Numbered from the stretch's first letter, positions 39,104 through 57,275 are shown. The stretch is 64,000 bases of DNA from an uncultured Bacilli bacterium (GCA_934086395.1 CAKOIE010000003.1:1163-65162); one strand, 5' to 3'. The notes: generated by a model not told the origin, from the sequence alone. Made by a program: numbers and translations.

Positions 39104-39741
39104 TTATTATTTAACTCCTTTCTTGCTTGTTTGTAATAGGGATAATATTTAGCTACTTCATTCCAAAATGCGGGTGAATGATCCATATGTTTAAAGTGAC
39201 ATAATTCATGAACTATTACATAATCGATTAAATTAACATCTTTAGTAATTAGTTCGGTATTTAAGGTTACAGTCATACTACTTTTATTACATACTCCCCA
39301 TCTAGTTTTCATTTTACGAACTTTTAATGTGAACTTTGGTAGATTATCAAACATATTCATTATTCGATCTAATCTAACTTTAAAAACATCATAACATAGA
39401 CTATAAATATAATTTATAGCGTCTTCTTCACTTTTAGCATAAATATAATTATTATCTATAAATGTTTTATCACTTTCTATTAGTGATAATTCATCACCTA
39501 AATACATTATTTTATTAGGTTTTAATTTATTTGCTTTAAGTTTATTATTAGCTTTAATTATAAAGGCTTTATTATCATTTATTATTTTTAATATTTCTTT
39601 ATTAGTTGTATAAAGATTAGCTGATACCTCTATTTTATTTTCTTCTTTTACTCTTAAGTATAAGTTTTTTATTCTTTTACGATTAACAATTATTTCGAAT
39701 GCTTCATTATCAATTATAATTTTATTATTCATCATCGCCAC
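39100..39741 (-). CDS. YgjP-like M48/DUF45 metallopeptidase
   Basis: VIVHELCHFKHMDHSPAFW (HExxH), plus RWGVC. Confidence 0.75.
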   Translation of the reverse strand: MAMMNNKIIIDNEAFEIIVNRKRIKNLYLRVKEENKIEVSANLYTTNKEILKIINDNKAFIIKANNKLKANKLKPNKIMYLGDELSLIESDKTFIDNNYIYAKSEEDAINYIYSLCYDVFKVRLDRIMNMFDNLPKFTLKVRKMKTRWGVCNKSSMTVTLNTELITKDVNLIDYVIVHELCHFKHMDHSPAFWNEVAKYYPYYKQARKELNNK

Positions 39742-41041
39742 TACGATTAGTAAATTTAAAGATTATAGGGGTGCCAGTAAAATCAAAGTTTTCTCTTATT
39801 TGATTTTCTAAATATCTTTCATAACTAAAGTGTACTAGATTTTTATTGTTAACAGAAAATTCAAATTTAGGTGGTTTTGTTCCTGTTTGATGAACAAAGT
39901 ATATTTTCAAACGTTTTCCTTTATAAGAAGGTGGTTCATGAATTAGAACTGCTTCTCTTATTACATCATTTAAAACACTAGTTTTAACACTTCTAGTTAA
40001 GCCTTCATATGCTTTAATTACTTCTGGCATTAATGTATGAATTCTTGATTTTGTTTTACTTGATAAAAATACAATAGGTGCATATGGAGCAAATTGAAAG
40101 TTATTTCTAATTAATTTTGTCCATGTTTTAATAGCTTCATCTTTATTATCTATTAAATCCCATTTATTTACGCATATTACAAGAGCTTTACCTGCATCAA
40201 TAGCGTATGATGCTATATGTTTATCATGTTCAATTATTCCTTCTTCGGCATTTAGAACAAGAACACAGACATCTGATCTTTCAATTGCTTTAAGACTTCT
40301 AAGCAAACTGTATTTTTCAATATTCTCATAAATCTTACCTTTTTTACGCATACCAGCTGTATCAATTACAATATAGTCATTTTTTTCATATGTAAAACGA
40401 GAATCAATAGCATCACGGGTAGTCCCAGCAACGTTTGAGACTATTGAACGTTCTTCATTTAATAAGGCGTTTACTAAACTACTTTTTCCAACATTAGGTC
40501 TTCCAATAAGGGAAAATTTTAAAGTAGCATCATCTTCTTCGGTTGTATATGGATTAAAATCCTTAGTAATTGCATTTAATAATTCTTTAATTCCTTTATT
40601 ATGTTCAGCAGATACGGGATAATAAGCATCAAATCCAAGTTCATAATAGTTGTAAATATTGTTATTCATATGTTTTTCATCTAATTTATTTACAGCAACA
40701 ATTACTTCTTTATTACTCTTTTTAAGAAGACTTGATATTAATAAATCATTACTTGTTAAATCTTCTTTACCATCTATAACAAATACGATTAAATCTGATT
40801 CATCAATAGCAAGTTCGGCTTGCATTTTAATATTTTCATTAAATGTTGCTTTTTCTAAATCAATTCCACCAGTATCTATTAAATTAAAACTTTTATCTTC
40901 ATAGTTAACTATTCCATAGATACGATCTCTAGTAACACCGGCTTGATCATCAATTATAGATTTTTTTTCATTTATTAATCTATTAAATAATGAACTTTTT
41001 CCAGTATTTGGTCTTCCAATTAAGGATACTGTTTTTCGCAT
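39725..41041 (-). CDS. der: ribosome-associated GTPase Der (EngA)
   Basis: Two G domains (GRPNTGKSSLFN and GRPNVGKSSLVN) plus a KH-like C-terminus. Confidence 0.92.
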   Translation of the reverse strand: MRKTVSLIGRPNTGKSSLFNRLINEKKSIIDDQAGVTRDRIYGIVNYEDKSFNLIDTGGIDLEKATFNENIKMQAELAIDESDLIVFVIDGKEDLTSNDLLISSLLKKSNKEVIVAVNKLDEKHMNNNIYNYYELGFDAYYPVSAEHNKGIKELLNAITKDFNPYTTEEDDATLKFSLIGRPNVGKSSLVNALLNEERSIVSNVAGTTRDAIDSRFTYEKNDYIVIDTAGMRKKGKIYENIEKYSLLRSLKAIERSDVCVLVLNAEEGIIEHDKHIASYAIDAGKALVICVNKWDLIDNKDEAIKTWTKLIRNNFQFAPYAPIVFLSSKTKSRIHTLMPEVIKAYEGLTRSVKTSVLNDVIREAVLIHEPPSYKGKRLKIYFVHQTGTKPPKFEFSVNNKNLVHFSYERYLENQIRENFDFTGTPIIFKFTNRSGDDE

Positions 41042-42359: not shown

Positions 42360-42836
42360 TTAGGCAACACTAACTATTTTAATTTGATAACTTCCAGTAG
42401 GAGATGAAATTTCTACTGTATCTCCTTCACTTTTATTAATAATTGCTTTACCAATAGGTGATTCGTTAGAAATCTTATTTTCAAATGGATCTGCTTCCAT
42501 TCTTCCTACGATATGATAAACTTCTTCTTCGTCATCATCAACATATTTAATTGTAACTGTTGAACCAACATCAACTATATGAGAATTTTTCTTTTCAATA
42601 ATAGTTGCATTAGCAAGCATAAATTCAAGTTCTTTAATTCTTCCCTCAACTTCAGCTTGTTCATTTCTTGCAGCATCATAGTCGGCATTTTCAGATAAGT
42701 CCCCTTGGCTTCTAGCATCTTTAATTGCTTCGATAACCTTTGGTCTTCTCACATTTTTTAATTCATTTAATTCTTCTTCAAGTTCTAAAAAACCATCACT
42801 TGTTAATAATATATCTTTCTTTGACATTAATATCAA
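42360..42836 (-). CDS. greA: transcription elongation factor GreA
   Basis: The coiled-coil N-terminus contains DLSENADYDAAR. The C-terminus reads SPIGKAIINKSEGDTVEI. Confidence 0.92.
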   Translation of the reverse strand: MILMSKKDILLTSDGFLELEEELNELKNVRRPKVIEAIKDARSQGDLSENADYDAARNEQAEVEGRIKELEFMLANATIIEKKNSHIVDVGSTVTIKYVDDDEEEVYHIVGRMEADPFENKISNESPIGKAIINKSEGDTVEISSPTGSYQIKIVSVA

Positions 42837-48410: not shown

Positions 48411-49559
48411 TTAACAATCTTTATAAATATCATAAAGATATTCTAAATCCATTTGTTGTAATACTTGTTTTAGATAGTCTTTATTTTTAGGGCTTCTTAA
48501 ATCAATATTACTTTGATAAACTTTGTTTTTCCAATAATTACTATTATCTTTATCTAAATATGTCTCTTTTAATAATTTTTCATTCAAATTTATATCATAA
48601 CCTATACCATGATTTTTAAAATCAGCATCATTATATCGTGATTCATTGTTATTTTTAATTAAATTGTTATTATATTCGATTTCCTTATAAACTTCGCCAC
48701 ATTGAAACATTATCTTGTTGGGGTCTATTCCTGAAATACTTTTACCATACATTATAGGATATTTAATATTTTTTGGAAGTTCATCATGACCAATAATTTG
48801 ATAATCACCATAATATATATTATTATCCATAATATGTTGTGATGGATATGTTGGTAATGTTTTAAGTTTATCTATAGAAACATTTTTATCTTCAGTTAAT
48901 ATATGAAATATTTCTATTATTAAAGGTCTTCCCATAAGTATATCCCAGTATTTAAAGCCTTTCTTAGTTCTTTTATATACATCCATTAATATTCTTCCAT
49001 AAGTATAACTATGTTTTCCAACCTTTACTCTAAAATAATCTCCCTCTTTATAGTTGATGTGGGTACGTTTTTCATTAATAAATAAATTTAATTCTTCTAA
49101 GTCATCAGTTGTTAAATCGTTAATATAGTTATTTAACCATTCATTTAACGAGTCTAAATCACTAATTTTCTCATCAAAATATTCTTTTAAGAATGTTTTT
49201 TGAGTTGTATAGTTTCCTATTATGTAATATCCTTCTTTTTCTTTTGATTTAGATATATAAAAGTAGGCCCCATAACCACTTAAATTCTCAATTACTGAAA
49301 AAGTTATTTTTTTAGGTTTACCTCTATTTGTTTTGTGAAGTATTATTTGGTGATTATTAGTTGTATCATAATCTACATCTTTCTCTTTTAAAGAAAAATA
49401 CTTATCAGTAACATATAAATTAATTATTTTAACTATTTTATCTTTATCAAAATAAACAAGTATTTTAACACAGCCATCCTCATATATTTCACATTTATAA
49501 TTATCTTTAAGTGGCTTTACACCTAAATATTTACGATATTTATTACTATATATTTCCAT
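48411..49559 (-). CDS. hypothetical protein
   Basis: 382 aa with no TM and no motif I can name. Confidence 0.5.
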   Translation of the reverse strand: MEIYSNKYRKYLGVKPLKDNYKCEIYEDGCVKILVYFDKDKIVKIINLYVTDKYFSLKEKDVDYDTTNNHQIILHKTNRGKPKKITFSVIENLSGYGAYFYISKSKEKEGYYIIGNYTTQKTFLKEYFDEKISDLDSLNEWLNNYINDLTTDDLEELNLFINEKRTHINYKEGDYFRVKVGKHSYTYGRILMDVYKRTKKGFKYWDILMGRPLIIEIFHILTEDKNVSIDKLKTLPTYPSQHIMDNNIYYGDYQIIGHDELPKNIKYPIMYGKSISGIDPNKIMFQCGEVYKEIEYNNNLIKNNNESRYNDADFKNHGIGYDINLNEKLLKETYLDKDNSNYWKNKVYQSNIDLRSPKNKDYLKQVLQQMDLEYLYDIYKDC

Positions 49560-49590
49560 AAATTTTCCTTTAACTATTTTAATTATTATT

Positions 49591-49688
49591 TTCTTCTAAC
49601 ATTTTTTCTTTTATTTTATCAACATCGGTAAAGAATAAATTTGTTCATTGATTTTTCATAGCAAGTAATGAGTTAAAGTTATATGATA
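49591..49688 (-). pseudogene. 3' remnant of a ToxN/AbiQ-like toxin gene
   Basis: It aligns with 50686-50783 of the intact gene. The translation is NFNSLLAMKNQ*TNLFFTDVDKIKEKMLEE, against NFNSLLAMKRQGINLFFTDIDKIKEKMLNE in the intact copy. Confidence 0.75.
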
Positions 49689-49718
49689 TCTAGATCTTTG
49701 ATGAAGCTTTACATATTT

Positions 49719-49767
49719 TCGATTGGAATCATTTATAACCCGCACCATCCATAAGCGGCTAACATTT
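49719..49767 (-). ncRNA. single orphan copy of the type III antitoxin repeat, with its promoter at 49797-49824
   Basis: TGGAATCATTTATAACCCGCACCATCCATAAGCGGCTAACATTT is identical to the units at 51216-51259 and 51266-51309. The promoter is TTGATT-16-TATACT. Confidence 0.6.
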
Positions 49768-49846
49768 ACCTCAAGTACTATCTTAAGTACAAAGAAAGTA
49801 TACTATAATTTTAAAAAAAATCAAATAGTTCTAGTAACACTAACGA

Positions 49847-50512
49847 TTATCTCTTTACCAATCTTTTTCCTTTATTTTTATTATACATATATTCATCTAT
49901 CGAAACTTGATGTTTTATATCTTTAACATCATCAACCAATTGTAACTTATTAAATAAACGCATAAACATAACATTAAAAGGAGCATAATAACTACCAGAA
50001 TTACAAAATTTAATTGTTACTCTTCCAATATTTGAACTACCATTTATAAATCCTGGCAAAATAGATTTAGGTATAAATTCAAGTTCGAATTCATCATCTA
50101 TTTTTCTTATCTTTAAAATGTTAGCATTATCGTGATTAAATTCATCACTACACCAAGTAATAGCCTTATTTTCTATATCATACAATTCAGAATAATGATA
50201 AAAATCATATTTAAAAGCTTTCTCACGATATATTTTATTATATTTTTCAGCCTCATAATTATTAAAAATATCATCATCCAAAATACAAACATTTACATTT
50301 TCTATATCCGCAAATAAATCTTGAAATGATGAATATACTGCACCATTTTCTCTAGTGATAGTAAAAAACATATTTTTAATTAATTTACTATCATCCATTA
50401 TTGTCCAGTACAAATCACCATTTCCATAAATCGACATAATAAGCCTAACATTTCCATCAATTAATGTGATATCTTTAAATCCATTATTAATTCCACTAAT
50501 AACAATTTCCAT
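49847..50512 (-). CDS. hypothetical protein
   Basis: The track ORF extends to 50533, but GGAGG plus 6 nt precedes the ATG at 50510-50512 (MEIVISG..). Confidence 0.5.
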   Translation of the reverse strand: MEIVISGINNGFKDITLIDGNVRLIMSIYGNGDLYWTIMDDSKLIKNMFFTITRENGAVYSSFQDLFADIENVNVCILDDDIFNNYEAEKYNKIYREKAFKYDFYHYSELYDIENKAITWCSDEFNHDNANILKIRKIDDEFELEFIPKSILPGFINGSSNIGRVTIKFCNSGSYYAPFNVMFMRLFNKLQLVDDVKDIKHQVSIDEYMYNKNKGKRLVKR

Positions 50513-50647
50513 TTTAAACCTCCAAACATACAATATACTACCTCAAAATAACACTTGGCACAAAATTATTTTCATATTTGTCATAATATTATTTACTTAA
50601 TTTTTTGAATCAACTTTCCATCAAAGATATTAATATGAAACACTTTT

Positions 50648-51142
50648 TTATTTATGTAATTTATCATTTTCTAACTCATTTAACATTTTTTCTTTTATTT
50701 TATCAATATCTGTAAAAAATAAATTTATTCCTTGCCTCTTCATAGCAAGTAATGAATTGAAGTTATATAATATTTCATTTTTAAGGTTATCTGCAACTCT
50801 AACTGGTGCACCATTTTCGGTATGAATATGATCAATATATTTTTCTAAAGTAGGAAATGCATTTTGAATTAATATAACAGATTTTTTATTAGCAATTTCA
50901 CTTATCATTATAGATTTACAACTACCATATTTTTTTATTTTCTTTTCAATAATTGGCTTATATTTGGATACGTTGCTACTTAAAGGTATAAACCATAAAA
51001 TATCTCCATCTTTAATAGTAAAATAGGTTGGTCTAGACTTCCCATTTTCATGATTAATCATCAATCCCTTGTCATTTTTTTTATCAAAAAAAGTATCTTT
51101 AATATGATAAATGTATCCAGTTTTAATTTCCAAAACAATCAC
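50648..51142 (-). CDS. type III toxin-antitoxin system toxin, ToxN/AbiQ/CptN-like endoribonuclease
   Basis: GKSRPTYFTIKDGDILWFIPLSSNVSKYK matches the family hallmark RP...(x)n..aPLSSpK. Size is ~160 aa, with tandem RNA repeats upstream. The start may be the TTG at 51131-51133, after AAGGGTGA. Confidence 0.7.
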   Translation of the reverse strand: MIVLEIKTGYIYHIKDTFFDKKNDKGLMINHENGKSRPTYFTIKDGDILWFIPLSSNVSKYKPIIEKKIKKYGSCKSIMISEIANKKSVILIQNAFPTLEKYIDHIHTENGAPVRVADNLKNEILYNFNSLLAMKRQGINLFFTDIDKIKEKMLNELENDKLHK

Positions 51143-51169
51143 CCTTTCAATGAGAATATATCATAAACC

Positions 51170-51198
51170 AAAATAAAACTCCATCATTATTGATGAAG
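51170..51198 (-). terminator. hairpin plus U-run between the antitoxin repeats and the toxin ORF
   Basis: The minus strand reads CTTCATCAataaTGATGGAG followed by TTTTATTTT. Confidence 0.6.
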
Positions 51199-51202
51199 CT
51201 TT

Positions 51203-51309
51203 ACACATTTTCGAGTGGAATCATTTATAACCCGCACCATCCATAAGCGGCTAACATTTCGCGATTGGAATCATTTATAACCCGCACCATCCATAAGCGG
51301 CTAACATTT
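51203..51309 (-). ncRNA. type III antitoxin RNA: 2.2 tandem 50-nt direct repeats
   Basis: The 44-nt cores at 51216-51259 and 51266-51309 are identical, with 6-nt linkers and a partial unit at 51203-51210. Confidence 0.7.
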
Positions 51310-51338
51310 ACCTCGAATACTATCTCAAGTACATAAAA

Positions 51339-51367
51339 AGTATACTATAATTTTAACGAAAAGTCAA
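51339..51367 (-). promoter_or_regulatory. promoter TTGACT-17-TATACT driving the repeats and toxin
   Basis: The reverse complement reads atTTGACTtttcgttaaaattatagTATACTttt. Confidence 0.6.
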
Positions 51368-51884
51368 ATAACTCTAGTAGCATACATTATATTATATGTT
51401 CTTTTTCTAAAATTAAACATAAAGACTTTCTATTCACATTTATATGGTGATTCGGCATAGTTATCTTTAATTTTATCTAAAGTTAGAGTTGTTAAATATT
51501 CACTGGCAGTCTTGCAAATAAAAATAAACTTCACCACTAATGATGAAGTTTATAAATTAATTATCTCTTTTCAAAACCAACTGTTTAGTTTTCATATAAT
51601 CATCTCTTTTAATATCTTTTTTCTTTGCAATATTTATCTCTCCTACCATTCTTACTATCATAAGTATATTATTTGAAATTTTAAAAATCAATAAATCAGT
51701 TAATAAATATTAAACTATTTTTTACATATGTTAATTTCAATATAAAATTGATGTTGTTTGATCAAATAATAATATAATTTTTTACACATTTTTATATTAG
51801 TACTAACATATAACATGAACCGATTTTCACAACGGGCAATCTTAAAAACACACATAATATTTTATCTATGTTCCACTACTCCCA

Positions 51885-52808
51885 TTATTCCTCATATCTA
51901 ACCTCATTCATATAATTAAATCCGCTTAAGTAATAATCATCTGAATATTCCCTTACTCTGTTTTCCATAACATCATTTATAGGTATAAGTGTATAATCTT
52001 TTAATACTACATATTTATATGTAAATGTTAATATTTCATCATAATATCTAGTTAACATATTAATTTTTACAGTAGTAATAATTCTTTTATTTAAATCATT
52101 ATCAAAGTAACTCATTAATTCATAAAAACCTTTATCTGTTTTAACTATTCTTTCATTATATATTCTAATTACTTTTTCACCTTCATAATTGCCACTTATT
52201 TTTTGGGTAGTTGGATATTTATCATTTCCATAATCTTTACTATATAAAATATTATCCTTTACATAAGCATATTCGGACATAAAATCATAATCAATCTTTT
52301 TTCCAAGAAATTCTGTTGAGTATTCCCATTTAAGATAATCACTTAAATTATAATTAGCATTTAAATACATATCATAACTATCTGTAACTTTATTATCGGT
52401 ATTATCATCATGTAAGGTATATATTATATCATTATAATCGTAAAATTTTATGTCTGCTCCTGAGTTTGGAGCAATATTCATAACCTTAATATTTTTGTCT
52501 ATATCATATACTTTTTTATAAACAAACTCTCCATTATCTAACTTTTGTGGATTAAAAATATATATAGAATTATTAGCTATAAATGAGTATTTACTAAATG
52601 ATGTATCTTCAGTTAATATTTCTCCACCATTTAGTTTTTGATATTCTTTATCTGAATATTTTTTCTTAAGTGCATCCAATATTGAATTTGCCTCTGGTGG
52701 TGTATGATCATTTAATTCCTGTTTTCCATTTTTAATAATGGCTATAGAAATAATGCTTATTAATACGATAGATACAATAACAACATAAATTATTTTTTTA
52801 CTATTCAT
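51885..52808 (-). CDS. membrane-anchored extracellular hypothetical protein
   Basis: 307 aa with an N-terminal TM. Confidence 0.5.
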   Translation of the reverse strand: MNSKKIIYVVIVSIVLISIISIAIIKNGKQELNDHTPPEANSILDALKKKYSDKEYQKLNGGEILTEDTSFSKYSFIANNSIYIFNPQKLDNGEFVYKKVYDIDKNIKVMNIAPNSGADIKFYDYNDIIYTLHDDNTDNKVTDSYDMYLNANYNLSDYLKWEYSTEFLGKKIDYDFMSEYAYVKDNILYSKDYGNDKYPTTQKISGNYEGEKVIRIYNERIVKTDKGFYELMSYFDNDLNKRIITTVKINMLTRYYDEILTFTYKYVVLKDYTLIPINDVMENRVREYSDDYYLSGFNYMNEVRYEE

Positions 52809-56660: not shown

Positions 56661-57275
56661 TTAACTGTTATTATCTAATTCAAATATTGGATATGCATTA
56701 TATCCTTCATATTCATAACTAGAATCTATTTCCTTCATAAAAACCTGTCTATCATTAATTTTAACAGTTAAGGCATTTTGAAGTAATAATCTAATTTCTA
56801 AATCTTTAACTGAGCTTCTTTCCATAGCAAGTAAATAATCTTCTTTATTAACCTTGCTCCAATCAATTACTTTATTTAACTTTTTTCTTAATATTAAATC
56901 TAACCAGATACGAGTACTTCTGCCATTTCCTTCTCTAAATGGATGAGCTATATTCATTTCTACATATTTTTTTATAATATTTTCAAAAGTATCTTGAGGC
57001 ATATTATCTATTTTATGTAAAATATCTTCTAAATACATACAAGATGCAAACCTAAAATTTCCTTTAGCAATATTTTCTTTTCTTATTTTACCAGCAAATG
57101 AATATATATCATCAAATAAATATTTATGAATACAAGCTAATCCTTTAAATGTTCCTATTTCAAATTCATCTCTTTTATTCGTGTCAAATAATTCTAATGC
57201 TTTTAGTTTAGAAATTCTTTCTTCTTCATGAGCAAGATCTACTAAATTTATAATTCCTAATTTATTTTCTAACAT
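56661..57275 (-). CDS. Fic family protein, class III (C-terminal inhibitory motif)
   Basis: Fic motif HPFREGNGRSTR. The C-terminal SYEYEG fits (S/T)xxxE(G/N). Confidence 0.8.
   Translation of the reverse strand: MLENKLGIINLVDLAHEEERISKLKALELFDTNKRDEFEIGTFKGLACIHKYLFDDIYSFAGKIRKENIAKGNFRFASCMYLEDILHKIDNMPQDTFENIIKKYVEMNIAHPFREGNGRSTRIWLDLILRKKLNKVIDWSKVNKEDYLLAMERSSVKDLEIRLLLQNALTVKINDRQVFMKEIDSSYEYEGYNAYPIFELDNNS

Follow-up and report, generated by a model that had tools for sequence, protein, structure and literature searches.

The 64,000-nucleotide (nt) stretch of DNA from an uncultured Bacilli bacterium analyzed here (GCA_934086395.1, CAKOIE010000003.1:1163-65162; at its full length referred to as the window) very probably contains a chromosomal type III toxin-antitoxin locus of the CptIN family. 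On the minus strand, between positions 51367 and 50648, a predicted promoter is followed by two tandem units of about 50 nt, which would constitute the antitoxin RNA cptI, by a predicted intrinsic terminator, and by the toxin gene cptN. The family assignment, the layout of the locus and its conservation, and the base pairs of a pseudoknot in the antitoxin RNA are directly supported by the analyses presented here. A preliminary description of this region had proposed a type III RNA-protein system with the order promoter, repeats, terminator, and toxin gene. All of the elements it listed were recovered on the minus strand, where their positions agree with those given to a few bases or better, and the layout, which is conserved across related loci, is supported.

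The toxin gene and the layout of the locus

Type III toxin-antitoxin families are defined by the sequence similarity of their toxins. The protein encoded by cptN (50648..51133) matches the NCBIfam equivalog model for CptIN family toxins, NF047359, with 156.8 bits at a curated cut-off of 90 (E 3.4e-46), and the match spans profile positions 1-150 of 150. In a phmmer search against all PDB sequences, the sole match is CptN of Eubacterium rectale (4RMO_A, E 1.9e-17; hereafter CptN(Er)), with an alignment of 146 residues covering residues 8-153. The locus is already covered by a curated NCBI protein model and is an ordinary member of a large family, for which a word-indexed search returned 2584 proteins at E<=1e-3 and an exhaustive search 944 representatives at 50% clustering, 440 of them with E<=1e-10.

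The peptide RPTYF...WFIPLSSNVSKYK, which is present in this protein, had been read in the preliminary description as the ToxN/AbiQ signature. When the open reading frame was searched with profile hidden Markov models, as had been proposed there, no family was matched at E<=1 in Pfam-A, which includes the ToxN toxin family, none was matched in PADLOC, and CptIN was the only family matched in NCBIfam. Membership of ToxN/AbiQ was therefore rejected, and the CptIN equivalog took its place. A side remark that the system may be closer to CptI turned out to be right, as seen from the matches to NF047359 and 4RMO. The idea of a distinct subfamily is weak; the toxin comfortably passes the CptIN family model.

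The longest version of the open reading frame as called mechanically is intact and extends from a GTG at 51142 to 50648, encoding 164 amino acids. However, TTG at 51133 is the likely true start, because homologs have an ATG at the aligned position and because a Shine-Dalgarno sequence, AAAGGGUG, is located at 51147..51140, 6 nt upstream of the TTG. The resulting toxin has 161 amino acids, and its stop codon is at 50650..50648.

Residue conservation was scored on 102 full-length, diverse CptN representatives from the exhaustive search. The near-invariant residues of this set (about 85-100% each) are R34, P35, W47, P50, S52, S53, K57, Y58, L88, Q90, P94, and Y99, with S/T at position 53 and Y/F at position 58 as family variants, and all of them are present in the protein of the window. 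The active-site residues S52, S53, R34, and K57 are thus present, and in the alignment with 4RMO both serines of the Ser-Ser pair (S52, S53) are conserved, as is Ser85. As a separate observation, cptN alleles look mosaic. P0063 has a C-terminal half identical to that of the window protein but diverges from it in the N-terminal half. In P0002 the situation is reversed, with most of the N-terminal half in common, which suggests recombination between alleles.

The predicted promoter is of the sigma-70 type and is located at 51339..51367, with the -35 element TTGACT (51367..51362), a spacer of 17 nt, and the -10 element TATACT (51344..51339). With a consensus match of 10/12 it is the top promoter-like match of the region. 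A single match of this kind is weak evidence, because the consensus scan returned 15 promoter-like sites versus 10.4 expected. However, 59 of 66 related loci have TTGAC[A/T]-17-TATA[T/C]T at the equivalent place. The promoter is followed by a 5' leader (51310..51338) with a weak hairpin (-3.8 kcal/mol, z = -0.86), which taken by itself does not reach significance. Small hairpins also occur at this position in relatives (median -5.1 kcal/mol); given its weakness in the window, the hairpin is not claimed as a functional part.

The repeat array is detected by Tandem Repeats Finder (TRF) at 51205..51309 with a period of 50, 2.1 copies, 94% matches, and a score of 187. On direct reading it consists of unit 1 (51260..51309; 50 nt; AAAUGUUAGCCGCUUAUGGAUGGUGCGGGUUAUAAAUGAUUCCAAUCGCG; nhmmer 54.0 bits), of unit 2 (51211..51259; 49 nt; 53.6 bits), the first 44 nt of which are identical to those of unit 1, and of a partial third repeat of 6 nt, AAAUGU (51205..51210). 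The 50-nt period and the identical 44-nt cores given in the preliminary description are confirmed. The array ends 62 nt before the toxin open reading frame, and no open reading frame of at least 40 amino acids lies over the repeat region on either strand. More than 60 independent genomes have the same two-unit array 5' of a homologous gene, and the array is therefore far beyond chance.

Between the array and cptN, a predicted intrinsic terminator (51163..51204) is formed by a hairpin (51204..51173) with a 14-bp stem and a 4-nt loop, followed by a U-rich tail, in agreement with the hairpin and U-run noted earlier. Its fold has a free energy of -15.3 kcal/mol (z = -4.58), none of 200 shuffled sequences was as stable, and the terminator scan gave 2 sites versus 0.1 expected. 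All 59 related loci measured also have a hairpin behind their last unit, with a median of -14.7 kcal/mol.

The antitoxin RNA in the window and in related loci

A scan of one genome per species yielded 76 related loci. Nearly all of them are found in metagenome-assembled genomes from the gut, labeled as uncultured Bacilli, Tenericutes, Erysipelotrichaceae, or Clostridium sp. CAG:302/CAG:914. Compared with the protein of the window, their toxins show 39-95% identity. In this comparison set, CptIN is abundant in uncultured Bacilli of the gut with low guanine-plus-cytosine content. Almost every related locus with upstream DNA has two units and the same order of promoter, repeats, terminator, and toxin gene. 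TRF reports a 48-52-nt repeat with about 2.1 copies upstream of about half of the toxin genes. In the remaining loci, among them the closest relatives with 82-86% identical toxins, direct reading reveals two mutually diverged units, which are missed by TRF. The view based on TRF, that many of the closest relatives have no repeats, was overturned by sequence reading and by an nhmmer profile of the unit, which finds exactly two adjacent units in 61 loci and three or four units in the loci L031, L052, and L073. The units always sit about 55-75 nt before the toxin gene, and their length in this clade is 47-53 nt, mostly 48-51 nt. The same design with 48-nt units is found in L063, the toxin of which is 48% identical, whereas the units of L071, with a 45% identical toxin, are about 44 nt long and show no sequence relationship.

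For the structure of the RNA, 109 distinct units from about 65 loci were aligned with MAFFT on sequence alone (alignment A1). Where units differed, the changes looked compensatory, and an H-type pseudoknot was therefore proposed. In a first model, stem S1 is formed by A1 columns 12-16/31-35 and stem S2 by columns 19-23/48-52. This model pairs 90.6% of the cells, versus at most 48% after a shift of the 3' partners by 1-3 columns. In 8 of 10 pairs both sides have changed, and none of 500 shuffles reaches the covariation score. For example, columns 13:34 are free of mismatches, with U-A in 76 units and C-G in the other 33, columns 20:51 are C-G in 62 and U-A in 45, and columns 23:48 are A-U in 64 and G-C in 44. 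When all column pairs were ranked by mutual information in an unbiased scan, the pairs of the model came out at the top. The scan also adds columns 11:38 (U-A 50, A-U 49), by which S1 is lengthened to 6 bp. In the extended model, 9 of 11 pairs are compensatory and 90.7% of the cells are paired (at most 47% after sliding), again with 0 of 500 shuffles reaching the score. These data support the prediction that each cptI unit forms an H-type pseudoknot, the A-rich loop of which has 9 nt. The antitoxin RNA of the clade is thereby described as a well-supported pseudoknot that lies outside every Rfam model.

Strong non-Watson-Crick covariation was found between columns 18 and 45 (U/G 59, C/U 28, U/A 16), connecting loop 1 with the 3' part of the long loop. 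These columns correspond to unit positions 15 and 38, which in unit 1 are 51295 and 51272 of the window. The pair is a candidate for a tertiary contact and resembles in this the stacking of G13 on G35 in crystallized CptI(Er).

When unit positions are counted from the first A of AAAUG, the predicted pseudoknot begins with a 5' tail, AAAUGUU (positions 1-7). S1 is formed by positions 8-13 with 25-31 (in unit 1, 51302..51297 with 51285..51279) and S2 by positions 17-20 with 41-44 (51293..51290 with 51269..51266). The first loop, L1, has 3 nt (positions 14-16), and S2 and S1 are connected by a linker (positions 21-24) with the near-invariant sequence UGGU, which has 6-7 nt in some relatives. The long A-rich loop of 9 nt, AUAAAUGAU, covers positions 32-40 (51278..51270 in unit 1), and the unit is closed by a 3' tail (positions 45-50).

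The junction between units contains an A-U (A1 columns 5-6) that is invariant in 109 of 109 units. The following G-U-U is at least 90% conserved, and the bases on the 5' side of the A-U vary (AAAU, ACAU, CAAU, UAAU, UUAU). The RNAs bound in CptIN(Er) are single repeats that terminate with a 2',3'-cyclic phosphate on A45 (PMC4627078). The window RNA would be cleaved inside this single-stranded, A-rich junction, in the simplest case directly after the invariant A (51307, 51257, and 51208). The A-rich junction motif is restored 3' of the last unit in relatives. In the window, AAAUGU at 51210..51205 restores it and presumably supplies the 3' processing site of unit 2.

Most relatives have two units that differ from each other (median identity 83%, range 72-98%), and in such pairs, for instance in L004 (positions 221-319 of the 430-nt upstream extract), each unit has its own compensated helices. 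Most loci of the clade thus possess two diverged, individually compensated units. This contrasts with a 2025 survey, in which cptI repeats were found to be nearly identical, unlike those of tenpI (PMC12283969), and is a small new point. The two units of the window agree with each other at 96% identity and both belong to the unit-1 type, unit 2 being nearer to unit 1 of other loci than to their unit 2, which argues for a recent homogenization of the array. L001 likewise has two near-identical copies of the unit-1 type.

With these results, a hypothetical protein beside an unannotated repeat becomes a defined CptIN module, for which a base-pair model and the exact coordinates of the RNA are given. 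The added value lies in the covariation-supported RNA model and in the observations at the level of the clade. They are useful for an RNA family model and for studying the co-evolution of RNA and protein; the understanding of the type III mechanism is unchanged.

Activity, role, and surroundings of the locus

For the window locus, we infer transcription, processing site, stoichiometry, toxicity, and biological role as follows. Transcription from the one promoter would yield a short leader and two cptI units of about 50 nt. Most transcripts would end at the intrinsic terminator, and occasional read-through would lead to transcription and translation of cptN, so that, following the ToxIN/CptIN paradigm, RNA would be present in excess of protein. 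CptN would act as an RNase A-like endoribonuclease with a ToxN/Kid fold and would cut the repeat transcript in the conserved A-rich junction (...A-A-U-G-U-U...) into monomers of about 50 nt. Each monomer would be an H-type pseudoknot with a 6-bp S1, a 4-5-bp S2, and the 9-nt loop, which is probably placed in the minor groove of S1. It would remain on the toxin and block the active site, probably in a ring of two proteins and two RNAs, a heterotetramer that is suggested by the structure of E. rectale CptIN (4RMO, PMC4627078). If the RNA supply dropped, free CptN would cleave cellular RNA and cause growth arrest. Stabilization of the locus (addiction) and phage defense, alone or together, are possible roles.

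Several observations weigh against the assignment to a functional CptIN locus. Firstly, with 49-50 nt the unit is 1-2 nt longer than published for cptIN, for which a census of 33 loci in 2012 gave 40-48 nt (mean 44.8) and 1.9-3.4 copies (PMC3401426); the copy number of 2.1 lies inside this range. A unit of about 50 nt, described earlier as unusually long, is not unusual, because 47-53 nt is the norm of a large clade of gut bacteria. Secondly, the minimum free energy of a nested fold is no better than that of shuffled sequences for a single unit (z = +1.14) or for the whole precursor. A pseudoknot is unsuited to nested folding, and the structure is therefore taken from covariation alone; likewise, RNAalifold on A1 finds S1 only, because pseudoknots are beyond its reach. 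Thirdly, an Rfam scan of 50000..52000 at E<=10 returned only a chance microRNA match and no family for cptI RNA. Fourthly, three residues differ from CptN(Er), in which Arg53, Asp81, and Tyr104 stand at the sites of Asn54, Asn82, and His104 of the window protein. Asp81 and Tyr104 touch the scissile adenine in CptN(Er) (PMC4627078), and the cleavage specificity may therefore differ from that of CptN(Er). His104 is shared by 60 of 60 clade members, and the 102 family representatives have His in 53 cases versus Tyr in 41.

The exchange at position 54 also belongs to these points, and it underlies an alternative that appears improbable, namely that the module is decaying or attenuated, with a private Lys-to-Asn exchange lowering or abolishing ribonuclease activity and leaving a pair that is no longer functional. 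Codon 54 (AAC, 50974..50972) directly follows the Ser-Ser pair. Asn54 is unique among about 70 close relatives, the others having almost always Lys or Arg; among 60 locus homologs the window protein alone has Asn, with Lys in 56, Arg in 2, and Gln in 1 of the other clade members, and Lys is found in all of the 12 closest database proteins fetched. CptN(Er) has Arg53 at the site of Asn54, and a Ser-Ser/Thr-Arg triad, in which either this or another Arg may take part, is described by Rao et al. (PMC4627078); in the sister family the exchange K55A of a nearby basic active-site residue renders ToxN nuclease-dead (PMC10853763; PMC5086642). In addition, a decayed second cptIN copy lies 1.3 kb away, so such loci do decay in this genome. 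Because of the ToxN mutant and the private nature of Asn54, the conservation of this site was tested across the family, and the 102 representatives have K in 54, R in 22, Q in 19, and N in 5 cases. A non-basic amide is thus tolerated in about one quarter of the family (24 of 102), and Asn54 is therefore probably tolerated natural variation; as a mark of an inactive toxin, it was demoted to a low-probability rival. Moreover, the basic, near-invariant R34 and K57 are intact, cptN has its full length, and the promoter, both near-identical units, and the terminator are intact. The CptN toxin of the window is probably active despite Asn54, and a reduced activity through this residue is a minor reservation.

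It is very improbable that the locus is an abortive-infection system of the ToxIN/AbiQ family with phage defense as its main job. Operon layout and general fold class are common to ToxN and the window system, the motif PLSS..K resembles the ToxN active-site segment PLTSPK (PMC5086642), and 5.5 kb from the locus a 204-amino-acid Fic/DOC protein (56661..57275, minus strand) is encoded, which matches the PADLOC candidate defense family PDC-S04 (E 2.8e-97). However, CptIN is the sole family matched by the toxin, the immediate neighbors of the locus have no matches to defense models, and DNA and protein searches of 50,697 phage records revealed no homolog of the locus. That type III systems are typically abortive-infection defenses, as had been put forward, is not established for CptIN. 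Two CptIN loci tested in Escherichia coli conferred no resistance against six coliphages, and E. rectale CptIN stabilized a plasmid (PMC3401426, PMC4627078, PMC5086642). With both loci negative against coliphages, a role in phage defense is possible but unproven for the family.

It is also very improbable that the repeats are a cis-acting regulatory leader (an attenuator or a protein-binding operator RNA) and not a trans-acting antitoxin. In favor of this alternative, they are part of the 5' untranslated region and immediately precede a terminator, which is the geometry of an attenuation leader, and they lack an Rfam family. However, the downstream gene encodes a bona fide CptN toxin (NCBIfam, 4RMO), and the repeats of characterized CptIN act in trans with even one unit neutralizing the toxin (PMC4627078). 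Moreover, the pseudoknot of each unit is compensated independently, its conserved single-stranded junctions fit processing into monomers, and no alternative pairing of terminator and antiterminator is evident.

The CptIN locus is accompanied by a decayed second cptIN copy on the same strand, 1.3 kb downstream of the intact locus (49569..49824), which was found by BLAST against L001, direct reading, and nhmmer. It begins with a promoter-like element, TTGATT-16-TATACT (49824..49797), and a leader, followed by a single intact cptI unit (49767..49719; nhmmer 54.3 bits), the core of which is identical to that of the units in the intact array. From the promoter to unit 1, both copies are 91% identical. 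After the unit, the first half of the terminator stem is retained. A deletion of about 420 nt follows, and then the 3' end of cptN, a remnant of about 120 nt (49689..49569) that is 81% identical to 50773..50647. A single unit of CptI(Er) is fully antitoxic (PMC4627078), and the orphan unit could therefore still supply antitoxin; its promoter and unit might still be expressed.

A more far-reaching proposal, which we regard as speculative and on balance unlikely, is that the CptIN clade of gut Bacilli represents a structurally distinct CptI subclass, characterized by a longer pseudoknot of 48-52 nt, a near-invariant UGG(U) linker, and a covarying loop-loop contact, with two non-identical antitoxin isoforms, each compensated separately, in most genomes. 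These isoforms would possibly form an asymmetric complex, in which every 2:2 ring contains both RNAs, or a complex of other stoichiometry. The window would then have been homogenized to one isoform, with the orphan cptI unit possibly still buffering the toxin.

The window has a guanine-plus-cytosine content of 24.6%, and its host is a low-GC gut bacterium of the uncultured Bacilli/Tenericutes kind. Housekeeping genes lie nearby, namely those for EngA/Der (39725..41041), GreA (42360..42836), U32 peptidases, and an O-methyltransferase, and the locus is therefore regarded as chromosomal. All cptIN loci of the 2012 census are chromosomal as well (PMC3401426). On plasmids, homologs are limited to relatives with 35-38% identity on 14 plasmids, and the phage and plasmid searches yielded no evidence for a mobile element at the locus, the neighbors of which include EngA/Der, GreA, and U32 peptidases.

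Directly downstream of cptN, an open reading frame of 228 amino acids (49847..50533, minus strand) is found, which has no Pfam and no PADLOC match and is conserved (67-96% identity) only beside the four closest cptIN loci, L001, L021, L024, and L068. Because of this restriction and the lack of a family match, it is not counted as a part of the system. About 160 nt upstream of the cptIN promoter, a second terminator-like hairpin is located (51524..51553, minus strand), the stem of which, AAACTTCATCA...TGGTGAAGTTT, resembles that of the cptI terminator, AAGCTTCATCA...TGATGGAGTTT; it may be the terminator of an upstream unit or another remnant. Further accessory genes nearby encode a 382-amino-acid protein with an Imm26 immunity domain (48411..49559, minus strand; E 4e-20), a helix-turn-helix protein, and a sortase.

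Comparison with characterized type III systems

The ToxIN systems of Pectobacterium atrosepticum, Bacillus thuringiensis, and E. coli and the AbiQ/antiQ system of Lactococcus have the same operon logic as the window locus, in which a self-processed repeat RNA gives rise to pseudoknot monomers that inhibit the endoribonuclease. They share with CptIN the core fold of the protein and an RNase A-like chemistry (PMC5086642). In contrast, the window toxin has no profile similarity to ToxN/AbiQ that is detectable with Pfam, and ToxI units have 34-36 nt in 2.8-5.5 copies, compared with 49-50 nt in 2.1 copies in the window. ToxIN complexes are 3:3 triangles, whereas those of CptIN are 2:2 rings, and abortive infection has been demonstrated for ToxIN and AbiQ, whereas for CptIN there is none so far.

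TenpIN, known from Photorhabdus luminescens, is similar to the window locus in its repeats, which have a mean length of 50.9 nt (range 39-57) and about 2 copies (PMC3401426, PMC12283969). Non-identical repeats with a conserved stretch of A residues have been reported for tenpI, as is the case in the relatives of the window locus. However, its toxin belongs to another family. The open reading frame of the window has no TenpN-type match in Pfam, PADLOC, or NCBIfam, in which CptIN alone is matched. In addition, TenpIN is largely found in Proteobacteria, and phage resistance has been shown for it.

The closest counterpart is CptIN of E. rectale (4RMO; PMC4627078), together with the cptIN family as defined in 2012 (PMC3401426). 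The window RNA was compared with CptI(Er) through the description of the latter in PMC4627078. CptI(Er) has 45 nt, and the additional 5 nt or so of the window unit are located in L1, which has 3 nt in the window and 1 nt in CptI(Er), and in the linker between S2 and S1, the 4-nt UGGU in the window. In CptI(Er), the very short L1 has its base stacked on the 3' end of the 9-nt A-rich L2 (A27-G35), which forms an A-minor twist with a U 'kink', and the tails are held by the toxin (PMC4627078). On the protein side, Asp81, Tyr104, and Arg53 of CptN(Er) are replaced by Asn, His, and Asn. The toxins are only distantly similar, and cross-neutralization is therefore not expected. Both systems nevertheless have in common a toxin that is homologous over its full length and possesses the Ser-Ser catalytic pair and other core residues, an antitoxin unit with an H-type pseudoknot, a 9-nt A-rich loop, single-stranded tails, and an A at the junction, and a chromosomal locus in which about two tandem repeats are followed by a terminator and the toxin gene.

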